Below, in pieces: positions 8,735 through 55,351 of a stretch of 64,000 bases of DNA. The notes below the pieces were generated by a model that saw only the letters and a list, made by a program, of their open reading frames with translations, did not search any database and had not been told where the DNA came from. Both the position numbers and the translations under genes were made by a program. Every line of letters begins with the position of its first letter. The stretch's first letter is position 1. Source of the stretch: Escherichia phage AV108; the sequence record OR352938.1. One strand, 5' to 3'.

Positions 8735-9016
8735 TTATTTTCTGTTGTACTTCTGCCACTTTCTGTAATACTGCTTGTAAAATTGTTTAATGTTTGGTGG
8801 TTCGTCACTATACATGTTATCAACCATCATGTCAATAAGACCTTCCGGTGTTTGATAGTTACCCGCTCGAATGAGTTCCTTAATCAAAAGATCTTGTGCC
8901 GCTTTATACTTGACAATAACAACTGTCTTTTCTGCCTTTCCAATTCCGATCCGGTCGTTAGCTCTCATAGCATCCCACCAATCTTTTTTAAACTTCATGT
9001 TGTTAAATTTCATCAT
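8735..9016 (-). CDS. hypothetical protein
   Basis: 93-aa ORF in compact leftward array. Confidence 0.4.
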   Translation of the reverse strand: MMKFNNMKFKKDWWDAMRANDRIGIGKAEKTVVIVKYKAAQDLLIKELIRAGNYQTPEGLIDMMVDNMYSDEPPNIKQFYKQYYRKWQKYNRK

Positions 9017-9816
9017 TAACCCTTCTTATATTCGCAAACATATTGAGTACCATAATCATAGCTAATGCGACCTTTCTCGATGACTTCAAAGCGGATTTCA
9101 TCGTTTTCCCCTACCCACATTTTGTACTCGTTGAAGTATCCTGCTACATCCGGTTTGCTCATACCAACAACCATATTTTTATATTGTTTGCTGCGTGTCA
9201 GATTTGATTTAAACACTTCGCGCTCATCAACATATACGAAAGAAGACAATTCACCTTCGGTCATGGTCATTTTCAGCTTGCCGCCCTTATTGCCATAAGT
9301 AGAGTTGCCATACAATGGATCTTTGCGGCTGTCTGTTTCAATACCATCAATGATTTTCCATGTAAATTTTGCAATGCACTGATAAGTGATAGATCCAGAG
9401 ATTTTCTCTTCTTTCTTCTGTTCTTCCACCACTTTTTCTTCCTGTTTCGGTTGTTCTTCTTCAACCTTCGCAGAAGTCTCTGAATCGCTTTCTGACGCGG
9501 TTTCTTCTTTAGGTAATACATTCATCAAGTTTTGGATTTGAGCGTTGTATACAGCCTCCAGTGGCTGAATCTGCCCGATATTGATCATTGTGTCACGAAC
9601 AGTTTTATTCCAGTTTCGTTGCTCTTGTTTCAGAGACGGATCAATCTTAACAGCCTTAACATACACCTCATGAAGTTTAGAGTCCAGTGCGGAGATAGAC
9701 TCATTAGCACAAATAAACTTCTCTGATTTGGTAGTAGCTTTAGCGCAATCAAAGGACGCAGCGTTAGCACCGAAAGCAGTAGCAGAAAGAACGATAGCAG
9801 CGATAATGTTTTTCAT
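9016..9816 (-). CDS. secreted protein with LprI/DUF1311-like N-terminal domain
   Basis: Signal peptide MKNIIAAIVLSATAFGANA; mature N-terminus FDCAKATTKSEKFICANESISALDSKLHEVY fits the lysozyme-inhibitor LprI-type motif. Confidence 0.55.
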   Translation of the reverse strand: MKNIIAAIVLSATAFGANAASFDCAKATTKSEKFICANESISALDSKLHEVYVKAVKIDPSLKQEQRNWNKTVRDTMINIGQIQPLEAVYNAQIQNLMNVLPKEETASESDSETSAKVEEEQPKQEEKVVEEQKKEEKISGSITYQCIAKFTWKIIDGIETDSRKDPLYGNSTYGNKGGKLKMTMTEGELSSFVYVDEREVFKSNLTRSKQYKNMVVGMSKPDVAGYFNEYKMWVGENDEIRFEVIEKGRISYDYGTQYVCEYKKG

Positions 9817-9843
9817 AATATATTCCTCAATGTTTTTCTTGAT

Positions 9844-9878
9844 GGGAGTATCTTACTACTCCCTTAATCCGGTGTCAA
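9844..9878 (-). promoter_or_regulatory. sigma70-type early promoter with stem-loop over the -10 (PeSL-like)
   Basis: Leftward TTGACA-N17-TAAGAT; inverted repeat gggagta/tactccc flanks the -10. Confidence 0.6.
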
Positions 9879-10098: not shown

Positions 10099-10121
10099 GT
10101 GATTCTCCTTTAGTTTGGTAT

Positions 10122-10156
10122 GGGAGTATAATACTACTCCCATTTCTTTACGTCAA
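10122..10156 (-). promoter_or_regulatory. sigma70-type early promoter with stem-loop (PeSL-like)
   Basis: TTGACG-N17-TATTAT leftward; hairpin gggagta-taatac-tactccc. Confidence 0.6.
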
Positions 10157-26526: not shown

Positions 26527-26730
26527 TTATAGCTCAAATTTCATGAAAGTTCCTACACTTTCATTTTCATTCTCTCCGTTTTCATCTAAGCCAAATTTGT
26601 AGACACTACCATCTGGCGATGTGTAAGAGAATACACGAAAACGGCCTACCGGATCAAGTTCCATGAACTCATATTCTTTTCCGGCTTCAAAAAGTGCATA
26701 TGTGCTTTTAAGACATTTCATCGTAATCAT
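26527..26730 (-). CDS. hypothetical protein
   Basis: 67-aa ORF. Confidence 0.4.
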   Translation of the reverse strand: MITMKCLKSTYALFEAGKEYEFMELDPVGRFRVFSYTSPDGSVYKFGLDENGENENESVGTFMKFEL

Positions 26731-26891
26731 TTAAGTGCCACCGACAACAGAATGAGAACTACACCAACATACATTGTGATCTCGGATAACTTTTCTGTTT
26801 TTGTTTTGTGTCCAGATAATCCGAAAACAACAACACCGATAATAGCGGACAGCAAGCCAACGATAAACATGATGATACTAAGCACCGTCTT
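26727..26891 (-). CDS. possible small two-TM membrane peptide (not in ORF track)
   Basis: GTG-initiated ORF of about 52 aa (LSIIMFIVGLLSAIIGVVVFGL...) overlapping neighbours by 4 nt. Confidence 0.25.
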   Translation of the reverse strand, partial: KTVLSIIMFIVGLLSAIIGVVVFGLSGHKTKTEKLSEITMYVGVVLILLSVALK

Positions 26892-28144: not shown

Positions 28145-29557
28145 TTAGAAAGTCATGTTATTTGCTAGCTCGTCGAGTTTTTCTCGTTTCTCGGCTTGCT
28201 GTGCGCTTTGTGGTTTAACTTGTGCATTCTCCTGATCTGCGATCTGGTTTGGTACTTCATACCAACGCTGATTGCCTTTCTTCACACCAACGTTAAACCG
28301 TGAATAATAGTTCTTGTCACCGTAACGAGACTTGATCTGCTTCATGAGTTGGACGCCCATTTTAGCCAGGTCTTCGGTTTCGATAACACCCAACATAAAG
28401 TCGGCAGTAGCCGGAAGACCTGCTGATTCAGCGGTATCACTCATGTTAAGGTCGGAAGCATCCCAACCCGCGCGGGTAGTCTGTGCCGCAGTCCAACCAA
28501 CAACATCCCACTTAACAAAAAATCCTCGCAGTTCTTCCGCAATCGCCTTAACTAGTGTGTAACTATTTTCAGAGTATACACGCAAGCGAGACGATGCGCA
28601 AATCCCCAGATAGTCAACAATCACAACATCAGGTTTAAACTGTTTCTTGAGTCGCAATTCATTCATTAACGCCTCAAAGTGATTGGAGTTCGCGCCACCA
28701 GTCGGATACTGCTTGATCATCAATTTTCCAACCGGACGATCTCCGATCTTCTTATTCTTAACACGCTTCATGCGTGCGGAATATTCCGCAAAAGAAACAT
28801 TACCATTATCCAATTCATCTAATGTAATGTCAAGCAAGTTTGCGTCGATACGTTTTGCTACTACATGCTCCGCCATCTCCATTGAGATATACAATACATC
28901 ATAACCACATTCCATATAATCCGCAGCAAGAGAACACAAGCCAAGCGATTTACCAACGTTTACACCAGCAAGCAACACATTTAGCGTTTTTCTTTCCGCC
29001 CCTCCTTTCGTGATTTTATTCAACATCGGCAGCTTAAACGGGATCTTATTCGCCTTAGTCTGATATAGCAAGAATCGTTTTTCAAAGTCATTAAACCAGT
29101 CATGACCTACATCAGAATCAAACGTAATGGATAGTGCTTCCTGCATGATCTCAGGAATAGCACCCTCACTCGGCAATTTCTTATTCTGTTTCTCTTTTGG
29201 TAGTTGTGCGTTCGCCTGAATCTCTAGCGCCCGTGACATTGCATTATACATAGCGCGGTCACGAATAAATTTTTCGGTTTCCTTCATTAACCAATCAAGG
29301 TCTTCCGGTGTATTCTCCAGCGAATCGAGAAGAGTTTTCGCCCCTTCATATGTTGTCTGATTTCCTCTCTCCTTGTCTAAAGCAATCTGTAATGCAGTTG
29401 GCGTAGGAATATTGGAATATTCGTCTACGTGCTTTTTAATCAGCTTATAAATCAGTTTTTCTTCGTCTTCGGTGAAGTAGTCCGCTTTAAGGTGAGGCCA
29501 TACATTCGTAAAGAATGCGCCATTGTAAATCAACTGTGAAAAGATAGTTTTAATCAT
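28145..29557 (-). CDS. 41: replicative DNA helicase (DnaB-like)
   Basis: 470 aa; Walker A GVNVGKS; RecA-like fold features; T4 gp41 size and position. Confidence 0.9.
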   Translation of the reverse strand: MIKTIFSQLIYNGAFFTNVWPHLKADYFTEDEEKLIYKLIKKHVDEYSNIPTPTALQIALDKERGNQTTYEGAKTLLDSLENTPEDLDWLMKETEKFIRDRAMYNAMSRALEIQANAQLPKEKQNKKLPSEGAIPEIMQEALSITFDSDVGHDWFNDFEKRFLLYQTKANKIPFKLPMLNKITKGGAERKTLNVLLAGVNVGKSLGLCSLAADYMECGYDVLYISMEMAEHVVAKRIDANLLDITLDELDNGNVSFAEYSARMKRVKNKKIGDRPVGKLMIKQYPTGGANSNHFEALMNELRLKKQFKPDVVIVDYLGICASSRLRVYSENSYTLVKAIAEELRGFFVKWDVVGWTAAQTTRAGWDASDLNMSDTAESAGLPATADFMLGVIETEDLAKMGVQLMKQIKSRYGDKNYYSRFNVGVKKGNQRWYEVPNQIADQENAQVKPQSAQQAEKREKLDELANNMTF

Positions 29558-51543: not shown

Positions 51544-51573
51544 AATATAATCCTCTCGTTGTTAAGTGGGAGT

Positions 51574-51601
51574 ATTATAGCATACTCCCTTCGCATGTCA
51601 A
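51574..51601 (-). promoter_or_regulatory. sigma70-type early promoter with stem-loop (PeSL-like)
   Basis: TTGACA-N16-TATAAT; hairpin gggagta...tactccc over the -10. Confidence 0.55.
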
Positions 51602-52776: not shown

Positions 52777-52808
52777 AATATAATCCTCTCGTTGTTTAGA
52801 TGGGAGTA

Positions 52809-52837
52809 TCTTACTACTCCCGTTTCATCATGTCAAG
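52809..52837 (-). promoter_or_regulatory. sigma70-type early promoter with stem-loop (PeSL-like)
   Basis: TTGACA-N17-TAAGAT; hairpin gggagta-tcttac-tactccc identical in type to 9844-9863. Confidence 0.55.
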
Positions 52838-54542: not shown

Positions 54543-55351
54543 TCTACGTTAGTTACATAAACTTCTTGCGTATCAGAAGACTTGCCACCTGAACGATCTA
54601 GGCAATAGGTCTTATTCAACAGGACGCAGTTTAGATCATTCCGCTTGATAAAGTCAAGAAGATGATCATTTACCTTTCCCTTATGATGCGTGACATTACT
54701 GATACCAAACTGAAAACCACGCGCCATAATAGATTCTACCCACTGATAGAATTTAATCTCTTCCTCGTCACTCCAGAACTTATTATATTCCGCAGAAGTG
54801 ATAAGATACGGCGGGTCCAAATAAACGAAATCACCTGGCAAGATCTCGATCTCGTCATATCGTCCAGAAGTAAAAATGATTCGACCGTCTTTGTTTTCTT
54901 CCTTAAAATTCAGGACACGCTCTACCGCGTTTTCGTTAAAAGTCCGGCGACCAAAATTAGCATTAAATTCTCCCTTTCGGTTATGGCGGTTAATGTTGCT
55001 AAAACTGTGCTGAATCAACACAAACAGCGATAGCGGATCTGGATTCTCGTTATACTTCTTACGAAATGTCATGTAAGCGTCTTTATCTTCGCGAGACAAA
55101 TCATTTTCGGCAATAATCCGCTTGATCGTAGAAACCGGATCAGGACACTCGTCAATCGCTTTGTACGCGTCAATTAAGCGGTGATCATAGTCATTAGCCA
55201 GCACATCCCCTTCGACGTACAGAGACACGCTCAAGCCTCCACAAAAGGCATCAACAAAGCGGTTATAGTGCTTAGGGAAATACTTACTAACACCTGGCAA
55301 TAGCTTTTCCTTATTGCCAGTATAGGGAATTAAACCTAATGCTTTCTTCAT
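54539..55351 (-). CDS. dam: DNA adenine methyltransferase (GATC)
   Basis: Match to T4 Dam: NRFVDAFCGGLSVSL (SAM binding), DFVYLDPPYLITSAEYNKFWS (DPPY motif). Confidence 0.9.
   Translation of the reverse strand: MKKALGLIPYTGNKEKLLPGVSKYFPKHYNRFVDAFCGGLSVSLYVEGDVLANDYDHRLIDAYKAIDECPDPVSTIKRIIAENDLSREDKDAYMTFRKKYNENPDPLSLFVLIQHSFSNINRHNRKGEFNANFGRRTFNENAVERVLNFKEENKDGRIIFTSGRYDEIEILPGDFVYLDPPYLITSAEYNKFWSDEEEIKFYQWVESIMARGFQFGISNVTHHKGKVNDHLLDFIKRNDLNCVLLNKTYCLDRSGGKSSDTQEVYVTNVD

Follow-up and report, generated by a model that had tools for sequence, protein, structure and literature searches.

The gene at positions 9016-9816 (minus strand) of a 64,000-nucleotide stretch of Escherichia phage AV108 (sequence record OR352938.1; this stretch is referred to here as the window) encodes a 266-residue protein that is predicted to be exported to the periplasm and that consists of two modules, a helical N-terminal domain of the LprI/DUF1311 family (the N module) and a C-terminal beta-barrel. 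The two-module architecture, the deeply diverged and swappable barrels, a gene pool shared by lytic and temperate phages and a circumstantial link to superinfection immunity all go beyond an earlier note on this DNA, whose interpretation of the product as a secreted lysozyme inhibitor and possible superinfection-exclusion factor is partly supported. The protein may act in the periplasm much as Spackle of phage T4 does and neutralise incoming proteins that cleave peptidoglycan or penetrate the envelope; this reading is preferred tentatively and stays short of probable.

The source phage is a Krischvirus, an RB49/phi1-like T4-type coliphage whose DNA is 97% identical to that of phi1, GEC-3S and MIZ2/3/6. 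In the list of open reading frames (ORFs), the coding sequence starts with ATG and ends with a TAA stop at 9016-9018. It matches phrog_14799 over its full length (E=6e-157), and its orthologues are named BN201_0263 in GEC-3S and ORF260c in RB49. The gene is placed between t, which encodes the holin, and the topoisomerase gene 52, within the hyperplastic early region, and despite this location it is found in essentially all of the ~59 Krischvirus records. It is a real gene, with a ratio of nonsynonymous to synonymous divergence (dN/dS) far below 1 in every comparison. The LprI/DUF1311 assignment by itself is not new: RB49ORF260c was already listed with a weak DUF1311 match in 2006, UniProt calls the RB49 protein 'Lysozyme inhibitor LprI-like N-terminal domain-containing protein' and RefSeq calls the E. 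coli copies 'lysozyme inhibitor LprI family protein'. Searches of the protein against the PADLOC library of anti-phage defence systems gave no meaningful match, and those against NCBIfam and against the sequences of the PDB gave nothing.

The two halves of the gene differ sharply in their conservation. Among 17 homologues, residues 1-106 are almost invariant, whereas only two cysteines and one glycine are invariant in the barrel (alignment columns C8, G19 and C122). The DNA of the window matches that of RB49 with 97% identity as far as about codon 134 (the similarity ends near 9415); across the barrel no similarity is detectable, and it returns at the end of the gene. At least four barrel types are present in lytic Krischviruses: A (the window, phi1 and GEC-3S), B (RB49), C (UPWr_E1) and D (JSE). 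All of them belong to the C-terminal half of phrog_14799, and types A, C and D each have a prophage counterpart with 45-57% identity. In pairwise Nei-Gojobori estimates, the N module gives dS of 0.08-0.28, dN of 0-0.03 and dN/dS of 0-0.26 (mostly <0.15) over all pairs. Within a barrel type dN/dS is 0.2-0.34; between types dN is 0.36-1.2 and dS is saturated, so that dN/dS is not meaningful there. This pattern points to barrels that are old lineages under purifying selection, recombined onto a recently shared and highly constrained N module, and not to recent hypermutation. The halves also recombine independently within near-identical genomes, as is indicated by the comparison of the window with GEC-3S, both of type A, in which 11 synonymous differences fall in the N module (codons 1-105, window 9502-9816) and one falls in the barrel. 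Judging from these alignments, barrel cassettes are exchanged at the linker between the modules (residues 104-139, window 9400-9507, minus strand), an acidic segment rich in E, K, P and Q that has an isoelectric point of 4.3, is predicted to be disordered (predicted local distance difference test, pLDDT, <50) and contains the recombination breakpoints.

The same N-terminal half is carried by temperate phages of E. coli. A chromosomal homologue is present in 26 of 5426 complete E. coli genomes; over its first 371-414 nucleotides it agrees with the phage gene at 94-96% identity. The stretch in common starts 6 nucleotides ahead of the ATG and ends, at gene nucleotides 371-414 (window 9403-9446), in the linker. 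In E. coli, the copy is the last gene of a prophage of ~35 kb with genes for a Rha protein and a gpA-type terminase; the insertion of this prophage truncates hicB. The mean number of N-module differences per 315 nucleotides is 12.2 between lytic phages, 8.6 between prophages and 14.5 between lytic phages and prophages, and polymorphisms are shared. From these comparisons, the N-module haplotypes of lytic Krischviruses and E. coli prophages are taken to form one mosaic recombining pool. In the prophage of E. coli strain H2 (locus L024), the 67 nucleotides directly after the stop codon of the LprI gene (9774-9840 of that locus) are 84% identical to the 5' start of the ORF that follows the gene in Krischviruses, a remnant that hints at derivation of the prophage copy from a T4-like context. 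In the window, this downstream ORF (8735-9016, minus strand) encodes 93 residues and its ATG overlaps the stop codon of the LprI gene (TAATG); a functional link between these neighbours is only possible.

The N-terminal part of the protein agrees well with what the earlier note had read from it, namely a classic signal peptide followed by a mature N-terminus with an LprI-type motif. The signal peptide comprises residues 1-19 (9760-9816, minus strand), with the n-region MKN, a 13-residue hydrophobic core (IIAAIVLSATAFG; mean Kyte-Doolittle value 2.28) and the c-region A-N-A, which is followed by ASFDC. Cleavage is assigned between ANA and ASFDC by sequence rules. A junction of this AxA-ASFDC type is kept in distant homologues (AQA, VNA, GNA, AFA and SFA) whose signal peptides have otherwise diverged, and the signal peptide has no lipobox. 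Both observations point to cleavage by signal peptidase I and thus to a soluble periplasmic product.

The N module (residues 20-103, window 9508-9759, minus strand) is matched by the Pfam LprI family PF07007 with E=1.8e-5 and 25.5 bits (gathering threshold 22), residues 24-76 aligning with positions 1-71 of the 106 of the profile. The family was matched independently by eight further phage and prophage homologues at 22.4-30 bits, so that the family membership proposed earlier stands up to a profile search. The motif FDCxKA..E..IC...L..LD..L..Y, which the earlier note had singled out, falls on invariant or near-invariant columns in an alignment with bacterial single-domain DUF1311 proteins. Although the local Pfam match ends at profile position 71, the whole domain aligns with these bacterial members. 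The LprI/DUF1311 family has been described as having four conserved cysteines that form two disulfides (PMC7933661). Bacterial members of the AASFDC type retain all four, whereas the phage N modules keep the first pair only (C24 and C36); the third and fourth positions are M/I and P/L in the Krischvirus proteins, which therefore lack the full cysteine signature of the family. In an AlphaFold2 model built from a deeper alignment (mean pLDDT 82), the N module occupies residues 21-100 (pLDDT 85-93) with helices at 30-37, 39-58, 62-80 and 83-98; the alignment and the model together suggest a last helix that has diverged but is still there. A PDB profile search with the N module gave only a marginal match (6AR7, E=0.007).

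The C-terminal cassette of type A (residues 140-266, window 9019-9399, minus strand) is all-beta in the same model, with eight strands between residues 141 and 263 and a pLDDT of ~94. In the model, the invariant Cys147 and Cys261 lie on the first and last strands, where they would form a disulfide that staples the barrel. Foldseek places the domain among small eight-stranded barrels, the nearest being NHBA, lipocalins and TbpB barrels, none of them at E<=1e-3; lipid-binding barrels are also similar in fold. By sequence the barrel stands alone: a Pfam search with five barrel types at E up to 10 returned no family, a PDB profile search returned no match of the right kind and no MliC or PliC chain, and an exhaustive phmmer search against 1.8 billion representative proteins returned only the barrel itself. 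The idea that it is a divergent MliC domain, suggested by YQC, VSFVY and W.G.DE segments that look alike by eye, was rejected, as far as membership of that family goes, on an hhalign probability of 0.16% and the lack of any Pfam or PDB profile match.

The gene is predicted to be expressed early from its own promoter. A sigma-70-type early promoter (9850-9878, minus strand) was found by a promoter scan, with the -35 box TTGACA (9878-9873), a 17-nucleotide spacer and the -10 box TAAGAT (9855-9850). A stem-loop, GGGAGTA-(6 nucleotides)-TACTCCC (9844-9863, minus strand), overlaps the -10 box, and a Shine-Dalgarno sequence, GAGGA (9824-9828, minus strand), is read 7 nucleotides upstream of the ATG. 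In PeSL cassettes, a strong early promoter is joined to a stem-loop that resembles a terminator (Arbiol et al., 2010; PMC2839356), and promoter activity has been demonstrated for other PeSLs of phi1 and RB49 (PMC2839356). The element upstream of the gene belongs to the PeSL class whose stem-loop overlaps the -10 box: a sigma-70 consensus with AT-rich DNA upstream of it is combined with a stable stem-loop and a Shine-Dalgarno sequence, and an ORFan follows. The site carries a promoter annotation in GEC-3S, and its sequence is identical in RB49, JSE, UPWr_E1 and the locus L013, all of which bears out the stem-loop early promoter named in the earlier note. The GGGAGTA/TACTCCC stem-loop motif occurs four times in the window, where none is expected by chance; the three further PeSL stem-loops lie at 10120-10156, 51568-51589 and 52802-52821. 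The last of these is exactly identical in sequence to the one at 9844-9863, and the two could therefore be partners in PeSL-PeSL recombination. Transfer of the gene to prophages through its PeSL was ruled out, since the AT-rich DNA upstream of the prophage copies is unrelated and contains no such element.

The N module also recurs in phages and bacteria beyond the genus. Klebsiella Marfavirus, T4-like phages of Aeromonas, Ludhianavirus, the lambdoid phage ev099 and phage SSU5 encode proteins of the same build, in which a signal peptide, an ASFDC-type N module and a low-complexity linker are followed by a different C-terminal domain with two cysteines (phrog_4675). In ev099, the gene sits in the early-left region immediately before xis/int. 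No homologue was found in T4 at E up to 1e-3. The Marfavirus gene does not occupy the slot of sp, the T4 gene for Spackle: sp is located between genes 41 and 61 in T4, whereas the Marfa gene is located between 61 and 56, where T4 has dam. Among species-representative bacterial genomes (GTDB contigs), at least 529 loci encode DUF1311 modules of the AASFDCxKA type. In the best 81 of them, the module is N-terminal in secreted proteins, nearly all of which are multi-domain, and the C-terminal parts are mutually unrelated and mostly unannotated; Pfam recognises only ankyrin repeats (2), DUF2135 (1) and Imm_superinfect/PF14373 (1). The PF14373 case is encoded in a betaproteobacterial metagenome-assembled genome (CANIIA010000001.1; locus L057, 3001-3681) and joins an N module (residues 6-61) through an Ala/Pro-rich linker to a full-length T4 Imm-type domain (180-219; 57.3 bits, threshold 27.9). 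The gene neighbours of the closest bacterial N-module proteins offered no informative context. In a gammaproteobacterial metagenome-assembled genome (locus L036, 6001-8502), LprI-domain genes of 127 and 339 residues lie between an ABC transporter/adaptor pair for type I secretion and a gene for a giant RTX-like adhesin.

In phage T4, superinfecting phage is excluded by Imm and by Spackle (gp61.3), a periplasmic inhibitor of the gp5 lysozyme; both are early proteins. In the preferred reading, the soluble two-module protein, which prophages carry as well, would be made early in infection and exported to the periplasm. There it would neutralise peptidoglycan-cleaving or other envelope-penetration proteins that arrive from outside, the main candidate targets being the tail-associated muramidases of superinfecting phages, and the outcome would be Spackle-like, that is, superinfection exclusion and protection from lysis-from-without. 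The conserved DUF1311 module would bind a conserved muramidase-type or envelope partner, and the exchangeable barrel would add a second, variable specificity. This reading is preferred because of the association of DUF1311 with muramidases, the absence of sp and imm from the window, the predicted early expression, the near-universal presence of the gene in the genus, its carriage by prophages and the fusion of the N module to an Imm-type domain. Anciently diverged, exchangeable barrels on a constant module likewise fit an interaction with diverse competitors.

The association with muramidase-type enzymes recurs in the literature and is thinly tested. The name of PF07007 derives from LprI of Mycobacterium tuberculosis, which is reported to inhibit lysozyme and also has an MliC domain (PMC7933661). 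In enterohaemorrhagic E. coli, the DUF1311 protein Etsi4 experimentally rescues the periplasmic toxicity of Etse4, a cell-wall-targeting type VI secretion system (T6SS) effector (PMC12981562). Other DUF1311 proteins are predicted to be T6SS immunity proteins from their gene position, adjoining transglycosylase- or lysozyme-like effectors.

The absence of sp and imm concerns both the syntenic positions and the rest of the 64-kb window, which were searched by tblastn; the rest of the genome was not searched. Between 25489 and 33934, the gene order is 61 (primase), five small ORFs, 41, an ORF of 105 residues, uvsX and 43. The 41-61 interval contains no secreted Sp-like ORF, and gene 43 directly neighbours uvsX without gene 42 between them. 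A weak Sp-like tblastn match at 28298-28492 is spurious, as it lies inside the ORF of the gp41 helicase. The gp5 gene is not in the window. Two further ORFs were observed on the minus strand. One of them (26727-26885), between primase and helicase, encodes 52 residues with two hydrophobic stretches and has the look of a small membrane protein. The other (54548-55342) encodes a homologue of the T4 Dam methyltransferase with 46% identity and is far from the 61-56 interval in which T4 has dam.

Several observations weigh against a Spackle-like neutraliser. Lysozyme inhibition, which the earlier note had attached to the protein, survives as a family label through PF07007 and is, as an activity of the protein, only possible. 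MliC alone has been reported to be sufficient for lysozyme resistance, so that inhibition by M. tuberculosis LprI may reside in its MliC domain, and deletion of the gene for Salmonella ScwA, a periplasmic LprI-domain protein, left lysozyme sensitivity unchanged (PMC7933661). The phage barrel has no sequence or profile similarity to MliC/PliC/PhiA (PF09864) in Pfam, PDB profile or hhalign comparisons, and unrelated barrels (Cap15, designed barrels, NHBA and lipocalins) score as high as MliC or higher. In Klebsiella phage SAKp28 (Marfavirus-like), a spackle-like gene in the 41-61 interval occurs together with an LprI-domain gene (locus L034, 1501-1782; PP660556.1, 52316-52600), and such co-occurrence speaks against a simple replacement of Spackle. 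Barrel types do not follow the gp5 of the phage that carries them: over 59 Krischvirus records this protein keeps at least 98.8% identity, and given this near-invariance, a target within the genus would match the constant module and not the barrel. No sign of positive selection on the barrel was seen in the pairwise Nei-Gojobori estimates, which have little power between types because dS is saturated. The many unrelated fusion partners in bacteria suggest that the N module may be a periplasmic handle of general use, and the one Imm fusion among the best 81 bacterial loci could be a coincidence. No effector-like gene of the kind expected beside a T6SS immunity gene was present among the inspected neighbours of the phage and prophage copies.

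A more elaborate form of the Spackle-like reading sees in these genes an exclusion system of the periplasm that is both modular and polymorphic. Interchangeable cassettes (barrels or domains with two cysteines), each directed against the envelope-penetration enzymes of different competitors, would be mounted on a DUF1311 'handle' that stays constant, and a single recombining gene pool, common to obligately lytic T4-like phages and temperate prophages, would fill the role of Sp and Imm in a genus without either. Taken as a whole, this form is doubtful.

Slightly more doubtful is a role like that of ScwA, in which the partner of the DUF1311 module would be a host lytic transglycosylase such as MltD. 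By binding or stabilising it, the protein would tune wall integrity or the timing of lysis, in infected cells or in the lysogen, and would not obstruct enzymes from outside. ScwA is the only characterised enterobacterial periplasmic LprI-domain protein; it modulates the levels of MltD, and its overproduction leads to lysis (PMC7933661). A near-invariant N module would suit a conserved host partner of this kind, but the deeply diverged and exchangeable barrels would be left without a reason, and ScwA has a different architecture, with four cysteines and the LprI domain at the C-terminus (PMC7933661).

The working part of the protein could instead be the barrel, with some part of the envelope or a small hydrophobic molecule as its ligand; from the periplasm it might, for instance, mask a receptor or injection-channel partner, while the DUF1311 module would serve as a generic secreted scaffold. 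The resemblance of the barrel to lipocalins, to the C-domain of NHBA and to TbpB-type and lipid-binding barrels is consistent with such a role, as is the promiscuity of the N module, which is joined to many unrelated C-terminal domains in bacteria and to the phrog_4675 domain in other phages. The strongest constraint, however, acts on the N module and not on the barrel, and known receptor-masking exclusion proteins are outer-membrane lipoproteins, whereas the protein described here lacks a lipobox. A barrel-centred function is considered unlikely.

Less likely again is that the protein provides orphan immunity and shields the infected cell or the lysogen from the muramidase-type T6SS effectors or bacteriocins of rival bacteria, and not from phages. 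This would agree with the validated or predicted role of DUF1311 proteins in T6SS immunity, orphan copies of which accumulate in effector islands, and the position at the edge of the prophage fits lysogenic conversion. What a short-cycled lytic phage would gain from such protection is not obvious, even though nearly all Krischviruses keep the gene, and keep it behind an early promoter. Moreover, there is no adjoining effector gene, and the known T6SS immunity proteins with DUF1311 are single-domain (for example, 146 residues). Finally, it is highly improbable that the gene lacks a function or is purely selfish and is simply carried along as PeSLs shuffle cassettes. Its hyperplastic surroundings abound in PeSLs and ORFans, but it is under purifying selection in both the N module and, within types, the barrel, and it is kept across the genus and in prophages.

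If the Spackle-like reading is true, T4-type phages would possess another means, structurally unrelated to the first, of disarming the muramidases of incoming phages, with a built-in interchangeable specificity module, and the widespread but poorly understood DUF1311/LprI N-terminal module would gain a testable function. Independent of function, an obligately lytic genus and E. coli prophages share a recombining gene module with ~95% DNA identity that is joined to anciently diverged cassettes. This is a clear case, from sequence alone, of intragenic modular exchange across phage lifestyles. Krischviruses such as phi1 are reported to have been isolated for therapy (PMC2839356), and for this reason exclusion among the members of a cocktail, or by lysogens, may matter practically for phage therapy.

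Among known systems, the PeSL-flanked ORFan cassettes of RB49 and phi1 (Arbiol et al., 2010; Comeau et al., 2014) resemble this gene in their location in a hyperplastic region and in the canonical PeSL that directly precedes it. They differ in that what varies here is a part of the gene itself, running from linker to stop codon, and not a whole PeSL-to-PeSL cassette, and in that the segment shared with prophages, which starts just before the ATG, excludes the PeSL. With the PF07007 family (M. tuberculosis LprI, ScwA and Etsi4), the phage protein has in common the N-terminal helical domain, the motif (A)SFDC...E..IC...LD...Y...QR.W and, as predicted, export to the periplasm. Conversely, it keeps only the first cysteine pair, is fused through a disordered acidic linker to a barrel that is not MliC, and is encoded by lytic and temperate phages without an adjoining effector gene. 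In architecture, the DUF1311 domain with a small barrel behind it parallels what is reported for M. tuberculosis LprI, which combines an LprI domain with an MliC domain. M. tuberculosis LprI is a lipoprotein, whereas the phage protein is predicted to be soluble, and the segments S-x-S-G-A-x-Y and W-x-K-G, which are invariant in an alignment of MliC proteins and contact lysozyme, are absent from all of the phage barrel types. The earlier note had called the protein unrelated in fold to Spackle, and the comparison agrees: neither Spackle nor Imm of T4 has sequence similarity to it, and BLASTP with Spackle gave nothing credible (E=23). The likeness to Imm consists in the one bacterial protein whose N module is fused to an Imm-type domain. 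Mature Spackle is a helical bundle of 75 residues with one disulfide (PMC7677548). The phage protein differs from it in having two domains, in being about three times larger and in its genome position between t and gene 52. What the two have in common is an early gene, a periplasmic product (predicted here from the signal peptide and the PeSL) and a small helical domain with one pair of cysteines.

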